Positions 780 to 36,803 of a stretch of DNA of 64,000 nucleotides are shown here, piece by piece. The position numbers were made by a program, and so were the translations under genes. Numbering within the stretch: position 1 is the first letter of the stretch; each line of letters begins with the position of its first letter. Source of the stretch: a virus (Duplodnaviria; Heunggongvirae; Uroviricota; Caudoviricetes); IMG/VR virus record IMGVR_UViG_3300035208_002606. One strand, given 5' to 3'. The notes beneath the pieces were generated by a model. It worked only from the letters and a program-made list of their open reading frames with translations, had not been told where the DNA came from and ran no database searches.

Positions 780-3700
780 ATGAGCCACAGAATTTATCAA
801 AAACTTACTTCGGGAGCGCAGTCGGGATATTGTGTCGAAAACTTTGCAATAAAAGAAAATGGCGTTTTGTCCGTAGGAGAAGTCAGCGGATACGAAGGAC
901 TACTTTCCGATATCAATGATATCCCCAACTTGGGATACCTGTGGGGAATGAGTGGAAGTTCAGGAATTTTATCAGGGTCGGGATATTCAGGATATATTCC
1001 ACGATGGGAAGGAAGCACCATCCTCGGCATTTCCCACCTTTATGACGATGGGGATAATATCGGTCTTGATACTTTAACCCCTACGGCAAAATTTTCTCAG
1101 AAAACAACGGAAGAATTTGAAACCCCGACAGCAGAATTCGAAAGTTACGGCCCCACTTATAATATTATCGACCATAATAACGACACCACATTTGAAATCC
1201 GTTCTTCGCCAAGTTCATATAATAACACTCTTGTCGGATTAAATGCAGGACTGCATAATTATACAGGCGCGGCAAATACGATATTTGGTGCAAACGCTTT
1301 TTACGAAAATATAAGTGGAGATGCAAATACCGCAATTGGTTCAAATGCTTTAAAAAACAATCAAAGTGGTGGGCAAAATACAGCAATTGGGTGGCAATCT
1401 CTTTTTTATGCAAATACAACGGGATTGACCGCTGTTGGCTCACGGTCTTTATTTTCAAATACAGGTGGGCAATATAATACTGCTGTAGGAACGAAATCTT
1501 TATTCTCCAATACCATCGGGGAAAATAATAGCGCATTGGGGTATTATTCTTTATACTCCGTTGTAAGTGGAATGGATAACACCGCCGTAGGGTCTTACGC
1601 TTTATACTCCAACACAACAGACGGCAATACGGCATTCGGAAGTTATGCCCTATATTCAAATGTGAGTGAGGGAGATAATACCGCAGTAGGAGACCATGCG
1701 TTATATTCCAACACGGCACCAAATAATACCGCACTAGGAAGTTTTTCCCTGTATTCAAATGTGGAGGGAATCGACAATACCGCAGTAGGTAGTTATGCCT
1801 TATATTCAGGGGCTACTGAGTATTCAGTTGATAATACCGCAGTAGGCAGTTATGCCTTATATTCCACCGTAGACGCAAGTTGTTGTACAGCGGTAGGAAG
1901 CATGGCCCTATTTGATAGTATAGCCGAATATAATACCGCAGTTGGGGCTTATGCTTTATATGTCCATGCCGCCCCCGATTGGGGGGAAAATGTTTCCGTG
2001 GGGGATTGGTCGTCTTCCTCTCTTCTAGAAGGAACTCAAAACACAGTAGTCGGTTCTAGTGCTTTTGGAAGTCTAGCGGGGGATGAAAATGTTGCCGTAG
2101 GATATGCGGCTTTACAATCGTGGTTAGCCACATCAATTTCTTATAATACGGCAATAGGGGCATGGGCATTAACAAGTAATCTTGTTGACGAAAATGTTGC
2201 CGTGGGATATTCAGCCCTATCGTCAAATACTGAAGGAATTGAAAATACGGCGGTTGGTACAGATTCCTTATATAATAATACAGGCGGCGTTGAGTCTATT
2301 TATGTTTATGATGGAGGCGACACTTGGGTTGATGTTCAATATGGAAGTTGGAATACAGCACTAGGATATCAATCCCTTTATTCGGGAGTAAGCGGAGTCG
2401 CAAACACAGCGATAGGGGACAAGGCTTTATATAACAATCTTGGGGGATGGACGCATGAGGAAGAACTTGGTACTTATTGGTATTGTACGGGTTCATATAA
2501 TACAGCAGTAGGGCATCAATCTCTTTACTCCAATACTGAAGGATACGACAACTCCGCTTTTGGCGCACTTACATTATACAGTAACACGACAGGACATCAT
2601 AATGTCGCTATCGGGGGAGGTCAAATACTTAGTATTCCATATACTGAGCCGCCAGCATGTCCCGCTCTTTACTCCAACACGACAGGTTATAACAATGTTG
2701 GGGTTGGAAATGGGGCATTGTATTCGAATATTACAGGGTATGGAAATACGGCTGATGGGGCATACGCTTTATTCTCAAATATTAGAGGAAAAGGCAATAC
2801 CGCAACAGGTGGAACTCTTGGCGCAACTCAACTTGATATTTACGGAGATTGGAATACATTTCAAGACCTTCCAAGCCCTTATAATCATGTATATTGTTCC
2901 GCAGAATTTTTAGGAAAATTATATTTCGGAGTGGGTACAGGAAGCAGTACCCCTTATGGTGCAAGGATTTATGTATGGGACGGAACAACTTTTTCTTTAT
3001 CTAAAGATATAGGAGCGGCACAGAGTAGATGTTATGGGATTACTGCTCTTTGTGTACATAATGGAAAATTATATGCTGACGCTAGATATCATCAATATGG
3101 AGATGGCTATCTTTGGGTGACGGAAAATGGAACTGATTGGTCAATAGCGTGGGACCACACTTCTAGTACTTATTACGGTGGAAATCCTCACTTATACTCA
3201 GACGGAACTTATTTATATTTTAATGCAAATAGAGCATCAACGATGCTTTCATATCTTTGGAAGAGTTTAGACGGAATAACTTGGACTGCCGTAGGAACTC
3301 TTACGGGACAATATAATAGTTTAGGATATCAATCAATATGTAAACTTGGTGACGCTATTTATATTGGGGGCAGACCAAGTTGGGGCGGACTTCCTTGTAA
3401 AATTTACAAATATGATGGGTCTTCATTAACAAGTGTTTTTGATGGGCCAACGCCTGATGATTTTTGGTGCTCGTATTATTGGAATGGTAAGGCATGGTTT
3501 GGAACTGAGCATGGAAGAATCTATACTTCCGCAGACGGAGTCAATTGGGATTTGGCTTATTATTTCGGAGATGTTGAACTCCAATATTTCTTTGAATATG
3601 GCGGTAAACTTCTATTAGCGCAGGATGATTTAATTTACGAAACAACCGATGGGGTCATTTGGACTTTATTTTATAATTCCCCCGTAACGAATATTTACAC

Positions 3701-6700
3701 CATATACATTTTTAATGAAGAGTTCTATTTAGGAACAGGCAATGCGGGACAAATTTTAAAATATGAAGTAACTACGGTAGAATCAAGTTATCATTATTCT
3801 CCTCTTTATTCAAATACCATAGGCTCTCTTAATGTCGCAACAGGTACAGGGGCATTATACACAAATAACACAGGATATTATAATACGGCACTAGGAGCAT
3901 TTGCTTTATTCTCTAGTGAAACTTCCTATTATAATACAGCCGTAGGTGCTTACTCCCTTTTTAATAATTTAACAAGTCCAAACACAGCAGTCGGATACAA
4001 ATCCCTTTATTCAAATCTTACAGGATACAATAACACGGCCTTGGGTCATTTGTCTTTATATTACAATACCACAGGATACAAAAATACGGCTACAGGCACA
4101 AACAGTCTACTTTCAAATTCTAGCGGATATAATAATACAGCAAATGGATATGGCACTCTCTACAATAATCTTGACGGATACTGCAATACTGCAATCGGGG
4201 ACGAATCGCTTTATGCCAATGTCTCAGGTTGGGAAAATACAGCCGTGGGTTGTCATGCCCTTTATCAATCTTCAGGATATTCAAATACGGCAATCGGCGT
4301 AAATGCGGGACGTAGCCTAACAACGGGAAGTGAGAATACTTTCCTTGGTCCTGCGGCAGGATATCATGACGAACAAAAAGTCGATGCCGAAAATTCTATT
4401 GCCTTGGGATACAACTCCTTTAGTTGGCAGGATAATCAGGCCGTCCTAGGAAACTCAGGAACCTCCGAAACCATCCTTTACGGACATCTCGGTATTGCAA
4501 CTGAAGCACCTGACCCGTGCGCCGCTGTAGATTTGGGGGCAACAGATGGCGGCTTGTTAATCAATCGTTTAGACACAACGGCTCGTGATGCTCTCACCCC
4601 TGTCAACGGCCTCATCATCTACAACATTACTGACCAACAATTTCAGCAGTATGCCAACGGCGTTTGGATTCCTGTACTTTCTTATCTTTCCACAGGTATT
4701 TTTTCTTTCGATGGACTGAGTAAAAATACTTCCGACCCAAGCGTCAACGATAAATTCGATGTCGGCGCAATTGAAGGGTGGATTGTTGACAACACTACCG
4801 ACCCTAGTGCGCCTGTCGTGCAGTACATCGTGTATCCGGGTTCATTGGACGATACTCCTGGCGGGATAGAAATCACCAATATCCTGACCCACCCCGTAAC
4901 TTATGTGGGTATTCAGGGGGATTCGACTGCTGATATCGTTCAACAGACGACACCGTTCACCGAAGCACAACAACGAGATATTATTAAACTCGGTGTTATT
5001 GTCCACAGCGACAATGCAAGCGTTGTCACTACGAACAATCAGACGGTTTCAATGTACGATGCCATCCCGCAATTTAACGACTTGGCTGGAGCATTGAGAA
5101 AATTCAATATTCCTATTCGTCCTATGGGCAATCATTTCTCCGCAATCGGAGGATTGGAAGTCGCAAGGTCGGCGGGAAAAATATTCTCGCTCGGAAGCAA
5201 TTATCAAACCGACCCAAAAAACCCGCACGTTAAATCCATCGCCGCCGAATCGCCAGTAACATTCCGATACCGCCTGCAAGACTCTACAGAGTACGGCAAC
5301 ACGACAGATGTAGACCCCGATTATTACGATGACGCAGGGGTAAAAACCGCTGTGCCTCTATTTAAGTTCACGGTACAAAGGGCTTGTATCTTTGAATCGG
5401 GATTGAGCCGATGGCAGTATGGTCAAAAAATTTACGACAATATTGACGATGCCGAAGCACAAATTCCTGAAACGGTAGACGAATTTATTGTGGAGGATAA
5501 TTTAGACGCAAACGGAATTCTCTGCTCGTTTGTCATCGTTCGTCAGGGCTGTACAGACCTGACTGACCCGTTGCAATGTAAAATCGTTCCTGCGGGACGA
5601 TGGGGATATGCGAGAGAAACCATTCCGGGCCAAACCCATCGAACAGAAATTGTCAACAATCTTTCCACAGGTTTGAGACACGGCGGCGCACTTTCAGGAT
5701 GGGCAGGAACCGACAGTTTTTCCGTCGAAGCGGGTTGCGGCCTCATCATCGACAATTCAACAGACCCTCACAATCCAACATTCACCGAAGTTCTTTGGGA
5801 CGGATATTCAGGAGTTGTAGACGATTTGGGAACCGTAACAGGAAATCCGGCAACTCACATCTTTATTGACGAGACGGGAGCGGTTGTACAAAAATCATTC
5901 ATTATTGACCCGCCGACTCCTGAATACAAAAGAGAACATATCTATCTTGGTCTTTTGGGACACAGTATTCATACGTCCGTAACCTCTATCTTTAATACAC
6001 CGATTACTTTCGTCTCCCCGATGAATAACTTGGAAGACTTGGCTTCTGCAATCGGGTTATTCAGTTTATCAGGAAATATTGTAAATTACGGAACGGAAGC
6101 GATGGAGTTGTCGAAAACTTCAGGATATGCCTATATGTTCGGGTCGAACTTTCAGAGCAATCCAGACAGTCCTTCGAGAATTGAAACCATCGCCGTTGAC
6201 GGACAGTACACTCCTGCATCGTTGCTGATTTATTCGCACGGTACGGGATTTATTAACCCAAGCACGTTCGTTATTGATGCGGCTCAATATGACCCTGCGG
6301 GGGCAGGAATACTTTCTGCACTGGGGCCGAATAAATGGCAGATTGCGAGAATTTGGCATATGGCCTCCCCGAACTTCCTTGTCTATCAATACGGACAAAC
6401 GGAATACGCAAATTACAATGACGCTATTGCCGCTGTAGGAACTGAGACTTCTTTCGTCAATACACCAAGTCTCGAAGGTATTGCTTATCTTTCATCGTTA
6501 CTTCTTGTCAGAGGCGGGGCGGCAGATTTGTCCAATCCTGCGGATGCCAAGTTCATTCCTGTTGGTAAATTTGGAGGGGGTGGAGGAGCAGGCGGCGCAG
6601 GAGAATCGGGATATTCGGGATATGGCGAAAGTGGATGGAGCGGGTATTCAGGATATTCGGGATACGGGGAAAGTGGGTATTCAGGATACTCAGGATATGG

Positions 6701-7148
6701 AGAGAGTGGGTATTCGGGATATTCGGGATATGGAGAGAGTGGGTATTCGGGATATTCAGGTATTGCAGGAGCCTATGACGCATCAGGCTTCAGCGGGTAT
6801 TCAGGCCCGTCAGGATGGAGTGGATATTCTTCCGACAGCGGGTGGAGTGGGTATTCAGGCGAGTCAGGATATTCAGGATACGGCGAAAGTGGATGGAGCG
6901 GGTATTCAGGATACGGAGAGAGTGGATGGAGCGGGTATTCAGGCGAGTCAGGATGGAGTGGATATTCTTCCGACAGCGGTTGGAGTGGATATTCAGGCCC
7001 GTCAGGATGGAGTGGATATTCTTCCGACAGCGGGTGGAGTGGGTATTCAGGCGAGTCAGGATATTCAGGGTATGGAGAAAGTGGGTATTCAGGATATTCG
7101 GGCGGTGGTGGTGGTATTACATTTGATGATTTAAAGAAATATTTTTAG
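780..7148 (+). CDS. Giant tail fibre/adhesin (2122 aa) with NTAVG beta-roll repeats, an inserted beta-propeller-like module, a duplicated ~310 aa domain and a C-terminal SGYSG repeat
   Basis: Dozens of N(T/V)A(V/I/L)G..(A/S)L..N repeats, Trp/Asp-box-like segment, Gly-Ser-Tyr repeat tail, tail-cluster context. Confidence 0.8.
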   Translation: MSHRIYQKLTSGAQSGYCVENFAIKENGVLSVGEVSGYEGLLSDINDIPNLGYLWGMSGSSGILSGSGYSGYIPRWEGSTILGISHLYDDGDNIGLDTLTPTAKFSQKTTEEFETPTAEFESYGPTYNIIDHNNDTTFEIRSSPSSYNNTLVGLNAGLHNYTGAANTIFGANAFYENISGDANTAIGSNALKNNQSGGQNTAIGWQSLFYANTTGLTAVGSRSLFSNTGGQYNTAVGTKSLFSNTIGENNSALGYYSLYSVVSGMDNTAVGSYALYSNTTDGNTAFGSYALYSNVSEGDNTAVGDHALYSNTAPNNTALGSFSLYSNVEGIDNTAVGSYALYSGATEYSVDNTAVGSYALYSTVDASCCTAVGSMALFDSIAEYNTAVGAYALYVHAAPDWGENVSVGDWSSSSLLEGTQNTVVGSSAFGSLAGDENVAVGYAALQSWLATSISYNTAIGAWALTSNLVDENVAVGYSALSSNTEGIENTAVGTDSLYNNTGGVESIYVYDGGDTWVDVQYGSWNTALGYQSLYSGVSGVANTAIGDKALYNNLGGWTHEEELGTYWYCTGSYNTAVGHQSLYSNTEGYDNSAFGALTLYSNTTGHHNVAIGGGQILSIPYTEPPACPALYSNTTGYNNVGVGNGALYSNITGYGNTADGAYALFSNIRGKGNTATGGTLGATQLDIYGDWNTFQDLPSPYNHVYCSAEFLGKLYFGVGTGSSTPYGARIYVWDGTTFSLSKDIGAAQSRCYGITALCVHNGKLYADARYHQYGDGYLWVTENGTDWSIAWDHTSSTYYGGNPHLYSDGTYLYFNANRASTMLSYLWKSLDGITWTAVGTLTGQYNSLGYQSICKLGDAIYIGGRPSWGGLPCKIYKYDGSSLTSVFDGPTPDDFWCSYYWNGKAWFGTEHGRIYTSADGVNWDLAYYFGDVELQYFFEYGGKLLLAQDDLIYETTDGVIWTLFYNSPVTNIYTIYIFNEEFYLGTGNAGQILKYEVTTVESSYHYSPLYSNTIGSLNVATGTGALYTNNTGYYNTALGAFALFSSETSYYNTAVGAYSLFNNLTSPNTAVGYKSLYSNLTGYNNTALGHLSLYYNTTGYKNTATGTNSLLSNSSGYNNTANGYGTLYNNLDGYCNTAIGDESLYANVSGWENTAVGCHALYQSSGYSNTAIGVNAGRSLTTGSENTFLGPAAGYHDEQKVDAENSIALGYNSFSWQDNQAVLGNSGTSETILYGHLGIATEAPDPCAAVDLGATDGGLLINRLDTTARDALTPVNGLIIYNITDQQFQQYANGVWIPVLSYLSTGIFSFDGLSKNTSDPSVNDKFDVGAIEGWIVDNTTDPSAPVVQYIVYPGSLDDTPGGIEITNILTHPVTYVGIQGDSTADIVQQTTPFTEAQQRDIIKLGVIVHSDNASVVTTNNQTVSMYDAIPQFNDLAGALRKFNIPIRPMGNHFSAIGGLEVARSAGKIFSLGSNYQTDPKNPHVKSIAAESPVTFRYRLQDSTEYGNTTDVDPDYYDDAGVKTAVPLFKFTVQRACIFESGLSRWQYGQKIYDNIDDAEAQIPETVDEFIVEDNLDANGILCSFVIVRQGCTDLTDPLQCKIVPAGRWGYARETIPGQTHRTEIVNNLSTGLRHGGALSGWAGTDSFSVEAGCGLIIDNSTDPHNPTFTEVLWDGYSGVVDDLGTVTGNPATHIFIDETGAVVQKSFIIDPPTPEYKREHIYLGLLGHSIHTSVTSIFNTPITFVSPMNNLEDLASAIGLFSLSGNIVNYGTEAMELSKTSGYAYMFGSNFQSNPDSPSRIETIAVDGQYTPASLLIYSHGTGFINPSTFVIDAAQYDPAGAGILSALGPNKWQIARIWHMASPNFLVYQYGQTEYANYNDAIAAVGTETSFVNTPSLEGIAYLSSLLLVRGGAADLSNPADAKFIPVGKFGGGGGAGGAGESGYSGYGESGWSGYSGYSGYGESGYSGYSGYGESGYSGYSGYGESGYSGYSGIAGAYDASGFSGYSGPSGWSGYSSDSGWSGYSGESGYSGYGESGWSGYSGYGESGWSGYSGESGWSGYSSDSGWSGYSGPSGWSGYSSDSGWSGYSGESGYSGYGESGYSGYSGGGGGITFDDLKKYF
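6598..7101 (+). repeat. Coding tandem repeat GESGYSGYSGY / SGWSGYS
   Basis: Repeated ggatattcagg / ggatggagtgg units, including an ~80 nt near-exact duplication. Confidence 0.9.
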
Positions 7149-7157
7149 GAGGAACAA

Positions 7158-7517
7158 ATGGCATACGATTGGACAAGACTTTGTGAAATTACTACTTTAA
7201 CAACATCTGCTGCAACTTATTATACACATAATGATGCATATAGTTCAAAGAGTTATGTAAAATTAATTGTTTTACATAATACTAGTGCTATAGATGTTGT
7301 TGTTCAATTATGGTTAGTTCCAGATGATGTATATGGAAGTGCAGGAACTGCTGCTGATGCAAATCAATTCTTTAAACAAGCAATTCCTGCTGGAAGAACA
7401 GTTGATATCAATTTTGAACAACCAGGATTAATAATGATTGATGATAATGAAACTATTCAAGCAATGGCAGAATATGCAGATGTAATTACAATGCAAATTA
7501 TGGGGGCTACTGAATGA
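7158..7517 (+). CDS. Hypothetical tail-fibre-associated (adapter-like) protein
   Basis: AGGAGG RBS, directly after the fibre gene, beta-rich 119 aa. Confidence 0.55.
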   Translation: MAYDWTRLCEITTLTTSAATYYTHNDAYSSKSYVKLIVLHNTSAIDVVVQLWLVPDDVYGSAGTAADANQFFKQAIPAGRTVDINFEQPGLIMIDDNETIQAMAEYADVITMQIMGATE

Positions 7518-8527
7518 TTCAATCTTCTATTGGAAAAATTCTTGGAGTAACTTTTCCTTCTGGTAGTCAAATTTATTATACTCAACCTTATGCAAATGTT
7601 TTTGGAGCAAGGTGTTCTTATAATACTTTGAACATATCTCCTGCATCTTTATATAATGGAGTAATTCATATTTGGTCGGGTTATCCTGATACAACTAATA
7701 GATATGCAAAATATGATATAGCAACAAATACTTGGTCTTATGTTACAATGCCTAGTACAAAAGCTCATTATCGATATGGGCATGGAGGAGGAATAATTGG
7801 AGATTATTTTTATATTTTTGGAGGAAGATATAGTACAACTTACTACAATGATACTTGGAGATATGATATTGCTGCAAATACTTGGTTAAATATGTCGCCT
7901 GCATCTCCTCCTACAGGTAGATATATGATAGATAAACAAAGTGTAGTCTACGATGAAAAATTATATGTATTGGGAGGGAGAGATGCTGCTAGCGCAGATT
8001 TAGTAGAATTTTGGGTTTATGACCCTTCTGCAAATACTTGGACATCTTTAGCAGCACCTTCTATTGTATACATAGCTGGTTCAATAACGGCATATAATGG
8101 AAAAATTTATTATTTAAGAGGAAATGCTTCACCTACAGTAAGAAATCTTTTTTATTGTTATGACATTGCTACAAATACATGGGACGAAACCTCTTTAGAA
8201 GATTGTCCTACAAAATTATATTATCAAAATCTTGTTAGTTTAGATGATGGAAATCTTATAGCAGTTGCAGGATATACAACTGTTCCTAGCGCAGGTTCGC
8301 AGCCATATAGTTATGGTTGTGATTTAGTAATTTATAATATTAAAACTAATAAATGGAGATTTGGTGCAGTAACAAGTGAAAATAGATATAATACAGTAAG
8401 AGCAGTTGCATATAAAGGACAAGTATATGTTTATGGTGGAATAGAAGGAAGTGGAGCATATCAATATGAAATGATGGTATATCCAAATCCTTTGGGACCT
8501 AGATATATTGTTAGAGAGGAGTATTAA
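7514..8527 (+). CDS. Kelch-repeat beta-propeller protein
   Basis: Repeated (Y/F)IFGG...YD(I/P)..NTW Kelch signatures. Confidence 0.9.
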   Translation: MIQSSIGKILGVTFPSGSQIYYTQPYANVFGARCSYNTLNISPASLYNGVIHIWSGYPDTTNRYAKYDIATNTWSYVTMPSTKAHYRYGHGGGIIGDYFYIFGGRYSTTYYNDTWRYDIAANTWLNMSPASPPTGRYMIDKQSVVYDEKLYVLGGRDAASADLVEFWVYDPSANTWTSLAAPSIVYIAGSITAYNGKIYYLRGNASPTVRNLFYCYDIATNTWDETSLEDCPTKLYYQNLVSLDDGNLIAVAGYTTVPSAGSQPYSYGCDLVIYNIKTNKWRFGAVTSENRYNTVRAVAYKGQVYVYGGIEGSGAYQYEMMVYPNPLGPRYIVREEY

Positions 8528-9622
8528 ATGGGAATAAAAATCTTAGGAATAAATGAAGTTGGGCATCAATCTGTAGATGATAATAGTAGTGTACCGTATG
8601 TATTTGTAAAAAGACCTACATCAACTCCTACATATAGTGTATATTTGCCTTCTGCTGGGTGTGTTAATATGCAATATTTTTATCAAGCTGCATTTTGTCA
8701 AGTAGGGAATATACTTTATATTTTCAGTGGTTATGATAGTTCTGTCTCATCAGAAACTTTTAAACAAAGACTGATTGTTGTTCATTTAGATACATGGAAA
8801 GTTTATGAAGAAGAAGGAATGACTAATACTCCTTCAGCACGAGCAGAGGCTACAATGGGGCATATTGATGGAAAATTATATGTTGTAGGTGGTACAACGG
8901 CATCTGCATCAGTAAACGAAGTTTGGGAATATGACATAGCAACAAAAGTTTGGACTGAATTATCATCAACAGACCCATTTCCTTCAACAACTTCTTTTAC
9001 AAACTCTTCAAGAATTGCTCATGCTTATAATAATAAATTATATTTTTCATGCGGGTCTGTTGATGGTTCTCTTTCTAATGGAATTTGGTCATTCGACCCA
9101 TTTGCAGAAGCTGGTTCAAAATGGACAACATTAACTCCTAATGCATCTGTAACTGCAAGAATTTATTACGGTCTTGCAATTTATGAAGATAAACTTTATA
9201 TTATAGGTGGAAGAAATGCTACAGGAACGACTTCGCCTGAAGCTTCAGTTTGGATGTATGACATAACTAATGATACTTGGACACGAAAAGCAAATCTTGT
9301 AGGATGGAATTCAAATTTATCTACTACTGGCGGAGTTATGTATCATAATGCTTGGACTATTGGAAAGAAAATTTATGTACATGATGGATTTACATATGAA
9401 AATAATTATAATAGATGGGTAGAAGAATATGATGTTATTAGTAATACGTGGACAAGAAAAGGCCCTACTAGACAAGATAGATATTTATGTGCTTCAGCTG
9501 TTTATAATGGAAGCATTTATACTTTAGCAGGTAAAGGATATAGTGCAACTACAACAGGTCATAGTGCACATGAATTGATATATAATCCTGGACTTGGAAG
9601 AATTTTACTTGCAGAAGTTTAA
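8528..9622 (+). CDS. Kelch-repeat beta-propeller protein
   Basis: LYVVGG, YDIATKVW, LYIIGG, YDITNDTW repeats. Confidence 0.9.
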   Translation: MGIKILGINEVGHQSVDDNSSVPYVFVKRPTSTPTYSVYLPSAGCVNMQYFYQAAFCQVGNILYIFSGYDSSVSSETFKQRLIVVHLDTWKVYEEEGMTNTPSARAEATMGHIDGKLYVVGGTTASASVNEVWEYDIATKVWTELSSTDPFPSTTSFTNSSRIAHAYNNKLYFSCGSVDGSLSNGIWSFDPFAEAGSKWTTLTPNASVTARIYYGLAIYEDKLYIIGGRNATGTTSPEASVWMYDITNDTWTRKANLVGWNSNLSTTGGVMYHNAWTIGKKIYVHDGFTYENNYNRWVEEYDVISNTWTRKGPTRQDRYLCASAVYNGSIYTLAGKGYSATTTGHSAHELIYNPGLGRILLAEV

Positions 9623-19015: not shown

Positions 19016-19726
19016 ATGAGAAATAATCAAAAGGTTGTTTGGGGGTTTATTTATCTTTTTATTGTTTGTAATAAAGGGTATGTGGGACAAACCCCTTATT
19101 TAAAAAATAGATTTAAATGTCATTTTAAAATTAAAAAATCAAATTCTTACTTCCACAATTCTTTACGCAAATACTTTAAAGAAAATAGTTCTTTCGAAAT
19201 TTTAGAATGTTGGAAAAGAAATGAAAGAAGTTTAGAAGAATTTAAAAAATTACTTAATAATAGAGAAATATTTTGGATTGATAAATTAGGCACTTTTGAC
19301 CCTGAACAAAAAAAGGGTTGGAATTTAACCCGTGGTGGTGGGGGAATTCTTGGATTAAAAGGAAAATTTAGTCCAAATTGGAATAAAAAATTGTCTATAG
19401 AAACTAGAAGAAAAATAAGTGAAAATCACGCAAATATGTCAGGAATGAATAATCCTTGTTTTGGAAGAACGAAAGAGAAACATCCCTTTTTTGGAAAAAG
19501 GGGGAGTTCAACTTACTATTTTGGAAAGCACCATACAAAAGAAACAAAAAATAATATTTCTAAAAAAACAAGAGGGGAAAATAATGGTTCGGTAAAATTA
19601 ACAGAAAAAGAAGTAATTGAAATAAAAAATAGTAGTTTATCTCAAATAGAGTTAGGAAAAATTTATAAAATACATCAATCTCATGTTTCTAGAATAAAAA
19701 GAAATGTAAATTGGAAATATTTATAA
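19016..19726 (+). CDS. GIY-YIG homing endonuclease, close paralog of 10005-10721
   Basis: GFIY..YVGQT, REIFWI, DPEQKKGWNLTRGG. Confidence 0.85.
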   Translation: MRNNQKVVWGFIYLFIVCNKGYVGQTPYLKNRFKCHFKIKKSNSYFHNSLRKYFKENSSFEILECWKRNERSLEEFKKLLNNREIFWIDKLGTFDPEQKKGWNLTRGGGGILGLKGKFSPNWNKKLSIETRRKISENHANMSGMNNPCFGRTKEKHPFFGKRGSSTYYFGKHHTKETKNNISKKTRGENNGSVKLTEKEVIEIKNSSLSQIELGKIYKIHQSHVSRIKRNVNWKYL

Positions 19727-21655: not shown

Positions 21656-21666
21656 TGTGGTATAAT
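21656..21666 (+). promoter_or_regulatory. Extended -10 promoter probably driving the Y RNA array and Ro60
   Basis: TGTGGTATAAT; the same motif occurs at 13994, 33649, 44725 and 60624. Confidence 0.7.
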
Positions 21667-21706
21667 ATTCTTGTTGAAAGGATTTGAGAGTTATTTGACA
21701 TTTTTG

Positions 21707-21810
21707 TTGAACGTGGCGACAGGGAAGAGTTACTTCTATCGAAATGGGAATGCACCCAAATATGGGCGCTTGGGCTTCGGCCTTCTCTCTTTCCGCATGT
21801 TCCCGTTCAA
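21707..21810 (+). ncRNA. Y RNA-like unit 1
   Basis: Terminal stem ttgaacg/cgttcaa, TGGCGACAG motif, stem 2 ggaagag/ctctttcc, TTACTTC, 3' GCATGTTCC. Confidence 0.8.
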
Positions 21811-21819
21811 AGCAATATT

Positions 21820-22010
21820 AAAGATGTGGCGACAGAATGAGTTACTTCATTACAACTATTATTTCTTACCCACGGGTAAGAAGCGGCGGGTAAACCCGCT
21901 GAAAGCCGCAAGGCGAAATGCCGTGAAATTCGGTGAGAGTCATAGGAACTACGCTTATGACTCGCCCACAATAAAGTGGGCGAGAAACTCGTTCGCTCAT
22001 TCCCATCTTT
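21820..22010 (+). ncRNA. Y RNA-like unit 2 (large multi-hairpin cargo)
   Basis: aaagatg/catcttt, TGGCGACAG, gaatgagt/actcgttc; at least 5 internal hairpins. Confidence 0.8.
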
Positions 22011-22020
22011 TAGCATTATT

Positions 22021-22132
22021 CGGATGTGGCGACAGAATGAGTTACTTCGGTTAATAACTACACAGTAGTTTAGCGGGTTCAAACCCCGCAAAGGCCTTCG
22101 GGCTTTAAGACTTATTCGCTCATTCCCATCCG
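22021..22132 (+). ncRNA. Y RNA-like unit 3 (T-arm-like cargo)
   Basis: cggatg/catccg, gaatgagt/acttattc, gcgggTTCAAAccccgc, CUUCGG hairpin. Confidence 0.8.
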
Positions 22133-22142
22133 TAGCATTATT

Positions 22143-22203
22143 AAGGCGTGGTGTAGACAGAGATACTTCATTGGAAAAAGCCTCTGTCGATTGTTCCCGC
22201 TTT
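22143..22203 (+). ncRNA. Y RNA-like unit 4 (minimal, no cargo)
   Basis: aaggcg/cgcttt, gacagag/ctctgtc, ATACTTC, TTGTTCC. Confidence 0.75.
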
Positions 22204-22214
22204 TAGCATTATTA

Positions 22215-22299
22215 GAGTGTGGCGATAGATATGGGTTACTTCAAAACTAACCATCTTGGTTCTGCCGAAAGGCAATAGCCCTGTCGCATGTTCCCACTC
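22215..22299 (+). ncRNA. Y RNA-like unit 5
   Basis: gagtg/cactc, TGGCGATAG, TTACTTC, tgccGAAAggca hairpin. Confidence 0.8.
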
Positions 22300-22311
22300 G
22301 TAGCATTATTA

Positions 22312-22450
22312 GGAAGTGGTGTAGATATGAGATACTTCAATAAGATTAAACTGGCAGTTATGGGTTCGAATCCCATCCAACCTCACGAGGCCGGTAGTTC
22401 AATGGTAGAACGGCTAGTCCCCAAAAAGCCTCTATCGCTTGTTCCCTTCC
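22312..22450 (+). ncRNA. YrlA-like Y RNA unit 6 (circularly permuted tRNA mimic)
   Basis: ggaag/cttcc; T-arm atgggTTCGAATcccat, closed acceptor stem, D-arm TAgttcAATGGTAgaac, anticodon-stem pair ctggc/gctag. Confidence 0.85.
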
Positions 22451-22461
22451 GTAGCAATATT

Positions 22462-22607
22462 TACTTGCGTGGTGAAAGGTGAAAGTTACTTCAATGTAAT
22501 GAAACGATTTCAGGTTCGAGTCCTGACTTAGCCGCAAGGTTATGTAGCCTAATTGGTAAGGCGTTAGCCCGTAAGGGCAAGACTTTTGCCGCCTGTTCCC
22601 GCGAGTA
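22462..22607 (+). ncRNA. YrlA-like Y RNA unit 7 (circularly permuted tRNA mimic)
   Basis: tacttgcg/cgcgagta; T-arm tcaggTTCGAGTcctga, acceptor stem closed by GCAA, D-arm TAgcctAATTGGTAaggc. Confidence 0.85.
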
Positions 22608-22638
22608 CTGAACAAAAATTAAAAATAGGAGATAAACA

Positions 22639-23955
22639 ATGAAGACCAACAAGAAGACCGTGGCGCAAACGAAGACGACTCACGAAGGTGGTCGTGCTTC
22701 TCGTATTACCGCTCTTCAAGAACTAAAGAGGTCGGTAATGTCGTGTCTGCTTTTCGAAGACCAATTCTACGAGAACGGCGTGGATAACGCAACTCGTATC
22801 AAGAATTTGGTGGCGAAGGTAGACCCGCAGGATGCCGTTGCCGTGGCTATTTCAGCACGAAACGACATGCACCTTCGACATGCCCCGTTGTGGATTGCAC
22901 GATGGTTGGCAAAGAATCCCGAAGCAAAGGTAGGAGAACTCTTGCCGCAAATTATCCAACGAGCAGACGAACTCGCAGAGTTCGTTGCGATGTATTGGAA
23001 GGACAAGAAGCAACCGCTCTCCAAGCAAGTTAAGAAAGGTCTAGCCCAAGCATTTACGAAGTTCAACGAGTATGCTTTGGCGAAGCACAACAGGGAAGGC
23101 GCAGTCAAACTGCGAGATGTCTTGTTCCTTTCTCACGCCAAGCCGAAGGATAAGGAGCAGGCAGAACTGTGGAAGAAACTCATTGACGGAACTCTCGCAA
23201 CTCCCGACACTTGGGAAGTCGCCCTGTCAGCAGGGAAGGACAAGAAGGAAACCTTTGAGCGCATGTTGAAGGAGAACACTCTTGGGGACATGGCGTTCAT
23301 GCGTAACCTGAGGAACATGGCCCAAGCCAAGGTGGACGAAAAACTCATCAAGGAGTCCTTCAAGAAGAGGAATTTCAACAAGGTATTCCCCTACCGTTTC
23401 ATTGCGGCGGCTGAAAATGCGCCGTCCTTTGCGGCAGAGTTGGAGAAGAAAATGTTGGAGTCCCTGTCCGAGCATCCGAAGTTGGACGGCAAGACCGTTC
23501 TGCTCATCGATGTTTCGGGTTCGATGGACATGGAGATGTCGGGCAAGTCAGAGATGACGAGAATCCATGCGGCTTCGGCTATCGCAGTACTCGCAAGGGA
23601 AATCTGCGAGAATGTTCAAATCTTCACTTTCTCCGAAAGGGCAAAGGAAGTGCCGAATGTTCACGGGTTCGGACTCATCGACAAGATTTGGAATTCGCAA
23701 ATGCGCGGCGGCACGAATCTGTGGGGAAGCATTCGACAGATTGATGCCAAGGTGGACTACGACAGGATGATTGTCTTCACGGACGAACAGGCTCACGACA
23801 GCATGACGAGTAAGCCGAAAGGTCAACTCTATGTCGTGAATGTCGGAGCCTATCAGAACGGCGTGGCCTACAAGAACTCCGTGCATATTGACGGATTCTC
23901 CGAGAAGGTTATTGACTTCATCATGGAGTACGAAAAACAAAGTGTGGTAGAATAG
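22639..23955 (+). CDS. rsr: Ro60/TROVE domain RNA-binding protein with vWA domain
   Basis: THEGG..ELKRSVMSCLLFEDQFYE, RADELAE, KLRDVLFLSHAKP, TPDTWEVALS, MRNLRNM, vWA MIDAS DVSGSM, FTDEQ. Confidence 0.95.
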   Translation: MKTNKKTVAQTKTTHEGGRASRITALQELKRSVMSCLLFEDQFYENGVDNATRIKNLVAKVDPQDAVAVAISARNDMHLRHAPLWIARWLAKNPEAKVGELLPQIIQRADELAEFVAMYWKDKKQPLSKQVKKGLAQAFTKFNEYALAKHNREGAVKLRDVLFLSHAKPKDKEQAELWKKLIDGTLATPDTWEVALSAGKDKKETFERMLKENTLGDMAFMRNLRNMAQAKVDEKLIKESFKKRNFNKVFPYRFIAAAENAPSFAAELEKKMLESLSEHPKLDGKTVLLIDVSGSMDMEMSGKSEMTRIHAASAIAVLAREICENVQIFTFSERAKEVPNVHGFGLIDKIWNSQMRGGTNLWGSIRQIDAKVDYDRMIVFTDEQAHDSMTSKPKGQLYVVNVGAYQNGVAYKNSVHIDGFSEKVIDFIMEYEKQSVVE

Positions 23956-23956
23956 T

Positions 23957-23988
23957 AAAAGGGGTGGTGGAAACACCACCCCTTTTTT
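23957..23988 (+). terminator. Rho-independent terminator of the Y RNA/Ro60 unit
   Basis: aaaaggggtggtg-GAAA-caccacccc followed by T6. Confidence 0.9.
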
Positions 23989-36005: not shown

Positions 36006-36803
36006 ATGGAAGGAATCGTCTATATCGGCACTAATTTGAAGAATGGGAAACAATATATTGGGAAAACAACTAGAGAATTAAAGGAAAGAACGAAAGAGCA
36101 TGAAAAAGAAAATGGGTGTCGTTGTATTCATTCAGCAATCAAAAAATATGGTATAGAAAACTTCAAATGGATTCCTATAAAATATTTTATTGATGAGTTA
36201 AATGAAATGGAAATGTTTTGGATTAAAACTTTAAATACGGAAACACCGAAGGGATATAATTTAACAAATGGTGGAGATGGCGGGGATACTTTTACTAACA
36301 ATTTAAAAAAAGAAAAAATAAGAGAAAAATCAAAAAAAGCATCACAAAAATATTGGGGGGAACATCCTGAAAAGAAAAAAGAACAATCGACAAAATGGAA
36401 AGGAAAAAATAATCCTATGTTTGGAAAAAAAGGAGAATTATCTCCATATTGGGGTAAAAAAAGACCCCAATATGGGTTAAAAGGAGAAAAAAATCCTTTT
36501 TTTGGAAAACATCATTCTGAAGCAAGTAAAAAAGCAATGAGTAAAAAAAGGATAGGGAAAACAGTTCCACACACAGAAGAATGGAACGAAAATATTTCAA
36601 AAGCACTTATGGGAAAACACCCCACAGAAGAAACGAAAAATAAAATAAGAAATACAATTATTAACAATAAAATATCTGCTGGAAAAAACAACCCCATGTA
36701 TGGTCGGAGCCTTTATTCAGTCTGGGTTGAAAAATATGGAAAAGAAATCGCAGATGAAAAATACAAAAACTGGATAAATAATAAGAGACGGAAAATAATA
36801 TGA
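36006..36803 (+). CDS. GIY-YIG homing endonuclease with NUMOD3 repeats
   Basis: GIVY..NGKQYIGKT, GYNLTNGG, NPFFGKHHSE. Confidence 0.88.
   Translation: MEGIVYIGTNLKNGKQYIGKTTRELKERTKEHEKENGCRCIHSAIKKYGIENFKWIPIKYFIDELNEMEMFWIKTLNTETPKGYNLTNGGDGGDTFTNNLKKEKIREKSKKASQKYWGEHPEKKKEQSTKWKGKNNPMFGKKGELSPYWGKKRPQYGLKGEKNPFFGKHHSEASKKAMSKKRIGKTVPHTEEWNENISKALMGKHPTEETKNKIRNTIINNKISAGKNNPMYGRSLYSVWVEKYGKEIADEKYKNWINNKRRKII

Follow-up and report, generated by a model that had tools for sequence, protein, structure and literature searches.

Y RNAs are known as modular tethers of the ring-shaped protein Ro60. In Deinococcus radiodurans a polycistronic Yrn2-tRNA-Yrn1 precursor is processed into Y RNAs (PMC4201824), and Ro60 and its Y RNA join PNPase in the complex called RYPER (PMC4201824; bioRxiv 10.1101/312249). 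The YrlA RNAs of bacteria and phages (Rfam RF02553), encoded beside the Ro60 protein (Rsr), have as their hallmarks a 5′ motif GNCGAAN0-1G, the proposed Rsr contact, followed by YUAY and by a permuted tRNA-like domain (Chen et al. 2014, PMC4201824). In phages, the Ro60 of Thermus phage phiLo binds two Y-like RNAs encoded upstream of it, Yrl1 and Yrl2; in vitro it enters complexes that include host PNPase, and higher-order Ro60-RNA complexes are reported too (PMC12135203). Earlier work has established that bacteria and phages have Ro60 together with Y RNAs, that Y RNAs are modular, that two can occur per locus (in D. radiodurans up to four small RNAs) and that their precursors can be polycistronic. 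Here we describe a locus of this known kind in enlarged and diversified form: seven tandem, mutually different Y RNA genes followed by a Ro60 gene, found in a stretch of 64 000 nt (further called the window) from the tailed phage record IMGVR_UViG_3300035208_002606.

Along the + strand, which carries all the window features described below, positions 21656-23988 start with a promoter and a short leader; the seven tandem units come next, then a ribosome-binding site, an open reading frame (ORF) of 438 codons and a strong intrinsic terminator. The array (21707-22607) consists of exactly seven units sharing one architecture, as the original prediction, made by a model from the letters of the window, had proposed. 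In each unit a closing stem of 5-8 bp is followed by an unpaired U and a GG:CC pair; next come an asymmetric internal loop and a 7-10 bp upper stem, then the single-stranded element (W)UACUUC and a variable insert. In every unit the GG pairs with the CC of the 3′ TTCC; the internal loop places UGGYG(N)NAG on the 5′ side opposite CGNNNRUU on the 3′ side, the latter running into UUCC (in full, CGNNNRUUCC). The 5′ core TGGYG(N)NAG...WTACTTC and the 3′ TTCC are present in all seven copies. The closing stem differs in sequence from copy to copy and pairs in each of them exactly as had been listed. Inserts span 12 nt (unit 4) to 138 nt (unit 2), close to the expected range of about 12 to about 140 nt, and whole units are 61-191 nt long. 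The strict 5′ motif has seven matches in the 64 kb with both strands counted, all within the array. Mini-folds gave the common closing architecture in 37 of 37 units tested. When fold energy was compared with that of shuffled sequence, five of the six units folded lower (z from −2.0 to −3.8); unit 6 did not (z −0.1), because its minimum-energy fold misses the tRNA-like arms.

The stems covary strongly. In an alignment of 37 units from 9 loci (A1), the closing stem and the GG:CC helix were 98% paired, with double changes in 11 of the 13 pairs; over the whole named structure 94% of cells were paired, versus 41-64% with partners slid by 1-3 columns. As unit ends had been picked partly by complementarity, a bias for the closing stem, we tested an independent set. 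This was made of 35 hits, from 12 loci outside the training set, of a covariance model (R1) built from the 37 units. Here the closing stem and GG:CC were 95% paired and double changes occurred in all eight pairs, with slid controls at 45-65%. For the terminal stem the two sets agree: 95-98% of its cells are paired and nearly all of its pairs show double changes, with slid controls at 41-65%. The otherwise invariant GG:CC pair switches jointly to AG:CU in five units. Of the 33 pairs predicted for the tRNA-like subset, 24 were compensated, among them pairs of the T-arm, closed acceptor-like stem and D-arm. The upper stem had a lower paired fraction (72-83%) in the uncorrected MAFFT alignment, as it was aligned in two registers, with or without a bulged U.

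Upstream of the Ro60 gene, at distances of 32-932 nt and so within about 4 kb, the seven units are all on its strand. They resemble YrlA (RF02553; PMC4201824) in this position, in the pairing of their 5′ and 3′ ends and in YUAY, which comes after a motif that approximates GNCGAA. The 5′ cores of the seven units read GGCGACAG, GGTGTAG, GGCGATAG or GGTGAAAG, while the exact GGCGAAG is present in related units of another locus (L004). At the YUAY position after the upper stem we observed UUAC in five units and AUAC in two, and NTACTTC was found in 63 of 72 units overall. Judged by these letters, the handle looks like a variant of the published Rsr-binding motif plus YUAY, kept in all seven units with or without a tRNA-like domain. 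That UACUUC is near-invariant even in units lacking such a domain suggests that it may be there for Ro60 or some other common factor and not for the tRNA-like fold.

The full tRNA-like domain (T-arm, closed acceptor-like stem and D-arm) was found only in units 6 and 7, in the same circularly permuted order as in YrlA. Unit 6 (22312-22450; R1 77.7 bits) has its T-arm at 22360-22376 and its D-arm at 22395-22411, with the closed acceptor-like stem as the third element. In unit 7 (22462-22607; R1 67.8 bits; fold z −3.1) the T-arm is at 22510-22526 and the D-arm at 22545-22563, and an extra hairpin is present. Both match the central T/acceptor-stem/D part of the Rfam YrlA model, unit 6 with 30.6 bits at 22355-22412 (E-value 2e-4) and unit 7 with 32.1 bits at 22503-22565 (E-value 8e-5). 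The Rfam search proposed with the original prediction matched these two units below the 69-bit threshold; at gathering thresholds Rfam gave no match in the window or in related arrays, true tRNAs excepted. Units from Xanthomonas phage Tenjo, Caulobacter phage CcrColossus and locus L007 align to the full YrlA model with 38-56 bits (best 55.9). ARAGORN predicted 0 tRNA genes in the 64-kb window, and the best match to the Rfam tRNA model was 15.3 bits versus a threshold of 29.

Unit 3 (22021-22132; R1 61 bits; fold z −3.8) combines a T-arm-like hairpin with a UUCG hairpin; the D-arm was looked for in it and not found. No tRNA element was found in units 1, 2, 4 and 5. Unit 1 (21707-21810; R1 51.5 bits; fold z −2.8) and unit 5 (22215-22299; R1 54.7 bits) have two small hairpins each, one of them capped by UUCG in unit 1 and by GAAA in unit 5. 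Unit 4 (22143-22203; R1 52.3 bits) is minimal, its mini-fold being hairpin-only around the 12-nt insert, similar to YrlB and Yrn2. The 138-nt insert of unit 2 (21820-22010; R1 46.9 bits) folds into about five hairpins, and five compensated pairs were seen in it among orthologues in the two closest loci, L001 and L002. The distal modules therefore comprise two tRNA-like ones, one with a T-arm only, three with one or two hairpins and one with five hairpins. Units 2 and 3 (21820-22132) share an identical 22-nt 5′ core and a common 3′ TTCGCTCATTCC, with unrelated inserts (138 versus 61 nt), which suggests that a unit was duplicated and that its distal module may then have been replaced.

The comparison with YrlA also shows differences: five of the seven units have no full tRNA-like domain, the handle is UGGYG(N)NAG with a near-invariant UACUUC, and Rfam scores are far below threshold. 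The text of the YrlA paper (PMC4201824) describes one or two RNAs per locus, and as many as four small RNAs for D. radiodurans; the window has seven. The phiLo system (PMC12135203) also has a phage Ro60 with Y-like RNAs directly upstream, and its protein provides the nearest solved structure (9KOP, 9L5Y); it differs in having just two RNAs, found via a CGAA motif, with no diversified array, and a protein about 60 residues longer. Several Y RNAs per locus and a polycistronic precursor, in our case a predicted one, are common to our locus and to the systems of D. radiodurans (Yrn1/Yrn2) and of Salmonella and Mycobacterium (YrlB). The plain small-loop hairpin of YrlB and Yrn2 recalls unit 4, and Yrn1, with a T-arm only, recalls unit 3; however, these systems have fewer copies, another handle sequence and no reported linker motif. 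The metazoan RNAs hY1, hY3, hY4 and hY5 (RF00019) are likewise paralogous RNAs with one Ro60-binding stem containing a bulged conserved helix and with differing distal loops, but each has its own RNA polymerase III gene instead of a place in a tandem co-transcribed array, and the tRNA-like domain is lacking.

The ORF downstream of the array (22639-23955; ribosome-binding site TAGGAG at 22626-22631) encodes a 438-residue Ro60, recognized through Pfam, PHROG and PDB matches, with a TROVE ring of HEAT repeats and a vWA domain carrying the MIDAS motif DxSxS. It passes the cutoff of Pfam TROVE (1.2e-12), in agreement with the gene assignment made earlier, and falls slightly below the 27.7-bit cutoff of vWA_Ro60 (4e-6, 27.3 bits); PHROG 850 was matched with 1e-50. 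Residues 13-430 align to the crystal structure of phiLo Ro60 (PDB 9KOP/9L5Y) with E-value 1.6e-30, and the MIDAS residues are retained, as are DVSGS, GGT and DEQ in the alignment to 9KOP. Partial YrlA matches, the full-length relative of phiLo Ro60 and strong covariation together sustain the view that these are Y RNA genes beside a phage Ro60.

The predicted extended −10 promoter, TGTGGTATAAT at 21656-21666, stands at the place given for it earlier and has a counterpart, TGTTATAAT, at the same position in L001 and L002. A consensus promoter scan did not call the 21656-21666 element, because it has no −35 box. Between promoter and unit 1 a 14-nt leader element, GAGTTATTTGACAT (21688-21701), occurs once in the window and is unchanged in L001 and L002 despite differing flanking bases; it may act as operator, processing site or part of a promoter. 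One terminator closes the operon after Ro60, as expected, at 23961-23988: a 9-bp GC stem with a GAAA loop (predicted stem-loop 23961-23982) and a T run. A terminator scan picked up the inner 5 bp of this stem (23966-23980); within the array its only terminator-like site was 21975-22001, which is the upper stem of unit 2 with the last hairpin. An ORF check against L001 and L002 found no conserved ORF across the array. A protein-coding reading was considered for a 127-codon TTG frame (21671-22054) and rejected, as this frame has no counterpart in either locus.

The six inter-unit linkers (T)AGCAWTATT are located at 21811-19, 22012-20, 22134-42, 22205-13, 22302-10 and 22453-61, thus within the span 21811-22461. 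The motif AGCAWTATT is present in 6 of 6 gaps, so that the linkers are near-invariant as described before; the window has one further copy versus 1.7 expected, and none of 100 shuffles reached 7 copies. A related AGCAWTWWT was found in most gaps of L001 and L002 and not in more distant arrays, where we saw other linkers or, as in CcrColossus, long closing stems. The linker is kept in the three closest phages though the adjoining stems have diverged, which fits a processing signal; the processing itself we infer. RNase E favors A/U-rich single-stranded sites, such as the linkers would offer. A separate promoter for each unit was also considered and rejected, because the −10-like reading of the linker would place the transcription start inside the closing stem.

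Arrays of this kind are not confined to the window. A protein search of IMG/VR with the window Ro60 gave 16 loci. In the two closest, L001 and L002, Ro60 is 82-84% identical and the array has 8 and 7 units, respectively, with the same promoter and leader. Most of their units are orthologous to window units, while others were gained, lost or have changed place; unit 1 of the window, for instance, has its most similar insert in unit 5 of L002, and the orthologue of window unit 5 is unit 5 of L001. When the array was compared by blastn with 50 697 phage records, nothing matched; similarity between arrays is therefore detectable only at the level of structure and motif. At this level (R1 hits with E-value < 1e-3), compared with the seven units of the window, the same number of tandem units or more were counted in CcrColossus (L018, JX100810.1; 8) and in a 308-kb IMG/VR contig (L109; at least 7). 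We counted five units in Tenjo, in Brevundimonas phage Bambus and in L088, three in Rhizobium phage RHph_TM61 and 2-4 in many other IMG/VR contigs; two to three units in crAss001 and two in Microcystis phage Mvi-JY20 were located downstream of Ro60. CcrColossus, Tenjo, Bambus, crAss001 and the acidobacterial chromosomes mentioned below were outside the R1 training set.

The R1 model was specific. In the 64 kb it found the seven array units and nothing else, and in the complete 280-kb genome of CcrColossus the 8 array units alone; in whole phage genomes R1 hits were located only beside the Ro60 gene. Among the loci fetched by Ro60 protein every R1 hit adjoined Ro60 and was on its strand. An IMG/VR scan by RNA motif only consisted mostly of chance matches (58 of 80 loci had no R1 hit); the 22 loci validated by R1 had an adjacent Ro60 in 19 cases, 18 of them on the same strand. 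R1 detected no unit next to Ro60 in Ralstonia phage RsoM2USA, halovirus HGTV-1 or Vibrio phage phiTY18. Across phages the architecture is conserved at Ro60 identities of only 38-55%.

Units are not restricted to phages. Chromosomes of bacterial metagenome-assembled genomes (MAGs) with Ro60 44-54% identical have 3-5 units (Acidoferrales, Bryobacterales, Dongiaceae, Cellvibrionaceae), those of acidobacteria 4-5. In an Acidoferrales MAG chromosome (OY969563.1) five units with the common handle (L028 2853-3905) are situated near mutL, cmk, rho and lon; given these housekeeping surroundings the locus is not a prophage. Its units 4 and 5 have a small ORF between them (3460-3719, about 86 codons). 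Beside Ro60 genes of this clade, arrays of 2-8 units are thus frequent, in bacterial chromosomes as well as in phages, one of them a cultured phage whose sequence dates from 2012; they are to be seen as a property of the whole clade. The window phage is not peculiar in having an array; it stands at the upper end of the copy-number range. The original prediction, which contrasted the array with one or a few Y RNAs in described loci, was right about its size; the array is not unique. A search for TROVE-adjacent arrays with the same linker had been proposed: arrays of 2-8 units proved widespread, but the linker was limited to close relatives.

Some arrays are arranged differently. The four units of L055 (124-543) are divergent, on the strand opposite to Ro60 (610-1278); in L108 (637-3602) units flank the Ro60 gene on both sides, and in L077 they are downstream of it. 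Array and Ro60 lie within or beside large tRNA gene arrays in L007 (196-3552, ∼25 tRNAs), L008 (1614-7944), L019 (2879-4846) and L023 (53-4593). An annotated ‘tRNA-Gln’ of CcrColossus (JX100810.1 109217-109284) falls inside a Y RNA unit (L018 2133-2297, i.e. 109124-109288; R1 55.1 bits), and is probably the tRNA-like module of this Y RNA, not a tRNA gene.

Elsewhere in the window we observed genes for gp32, UvsX, a gp41-type helicase, gp46/47, UvsW, RNase H, ribonucleotide reductase and GIY-YIG homing endonucleases; these neighbors identify the source of the window as a large T4-like phage. Two GIY-YIG/NUMOD3 homing endonuclease genes are located in the replication module (19016-19726 and 36006-36803). 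A 2122-codon ORF (780-7148) had no Pfam match, and two adjoining genes (7514-9622) encode Kelch-repeat proteins.

We consider it probable that the locus is an operon in which a host-type promoter drives seven different Y RNAs together with the phage's own Ro60, the RNAs being cut, bound by Ro60 and able to redirect the ring through their distal modules. The primary transcript would be cut in the short A/U-rich AGCAWUAUU linkers, and each RNA of 61-191 nt would be bound by its handle to a Ro60 ring and stabilized. The distal modules would then tether or gate Ro60 towards different partners, the first candidate being host PNPase, for which there is documented precedent, and the second enzymes that recognize the tRNA elbow. 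In this way the phage may reshape RNA decay or repair early in infection; an early role is suggested by the host-type promoter and by the TROVE gene of crAss001, which is an early gene (PMC8375218).

Several points weigh against this interpretation. Expression, processing and binding are, for this phage, inferred. No unit reaches the Rfam YrlA gathering score of 69 bits, the best being 32.1 in the window and 55.9 in related phages, and the exact GNCGAAN0-1G is present in none of the seven 5′ cores, each of which is 1-2 positions off. The linker is conserved in the closest relatives only and so may be clade-specific or partly derived from recent duplications.

Furthermore, neither sequence reading nor scan revealed a terminator or a recognizable promoter between the end of unit 7, 31 nt ahead of the start codon, and the Ro60 gene, and the array could therefore also stay uncut. 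As a single long structured leader on the Ro60 mRNA it could load several rings side by side into a multi-ring particle, in line with the higher-order Ro60-RNA complexes of phiLo (PMC12135203), or mediate feedback on Ro60 translation via unit 7. We regard this as unlikely: the polycistronic Y RNA precursor of D. radiodurans is processed (PMC4201824), the linker is conserved beside diverging stems, and, as units are downstream of Ro60 in crAss001, Mvi-JY20, L077 and L108, a leader role could not be general.

One could also speculate that the RNAs are mainly decoys or sponges, largely independent of Ro60, which soak up host tRNA-binding or RNA-targeting defense enzymes. The tRNA elbow elements in units 6, 7 and 3 and the adjacency of arrays to phage tRNA gene arrays in several relatives point in this direction. 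Still, the invariant portion of the units is the Ro60-type handle and not the insert, the RNAs accompany Ro60 in nearly all loci, and YrlA-type domains have no anticodon loop and no free CCA end (bioRxiv 10.1101/312249), so that they cannot mimic the usual targets of anticodon nucleases; we find the decoy function quite improbable. To read the array as the remains of a tRNA gene cluster or as a tandem repeat devoid of function, as its T-arm and D-arm sequences might suggest, is contradicted by the covariation and highly implausible given the absence of ARAGORN tRNAs, the element order (T-arm, closed acceptor-like stem, D-arm), four units with no tRNA element, compensatory changes throughout and an architecture kept at the low Ro60 identities given above.

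As for novelty, arrays of 5-8 units, hairpin-only phage units and the UACUUC element were not described in the literature that we searched, from which the reviews PMC10870794 and PMC6047535 and the tables supplementing Chen et al. 2014 were missing. Since Chen et al. reported all YrlA-like hits within 4 kb of Rsr (PMC4201824), several tRNA-like copies of CcrColossus may already be listed there.

Current annotation misses most such RNAs: Rfam calls none of them and a unit of CcrColossus overlaps an annotated tRNA, while the handle-based R1 model finds them specifically. The role of the distal module of a Y RNA is known for very few cases, PNPase in Deinococcus being one; we know of no partner of YrlA. 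In these arrays nature has put up to eight modules on a common handle, and, as the carriers CcrColossus, Tenjo, Bambus and crAss001 are cultured with tractable hosts, pull-downs of partners are practical. Returning to the operon of seven Y RNAs and Ro60 as the preferred interpretation, we tentatively propose, as an extension that may well prove wrong, that the Ro60 loci of this clade, those of phages and of some bacteria, hold an evolving library of adaptor RNAs, with a constant handle and exchangeable modules that are gained, lost and swapped, each aiming the ring at a different host enzyme or RNA. If so, the hairpin-only and five-hairpin units would be effector modules of undescribed kinds, and a phage with seven or eight units would run several Ro60 particles at once, thus taking over host RNA decay or repair or blunting RNA-based defenses.

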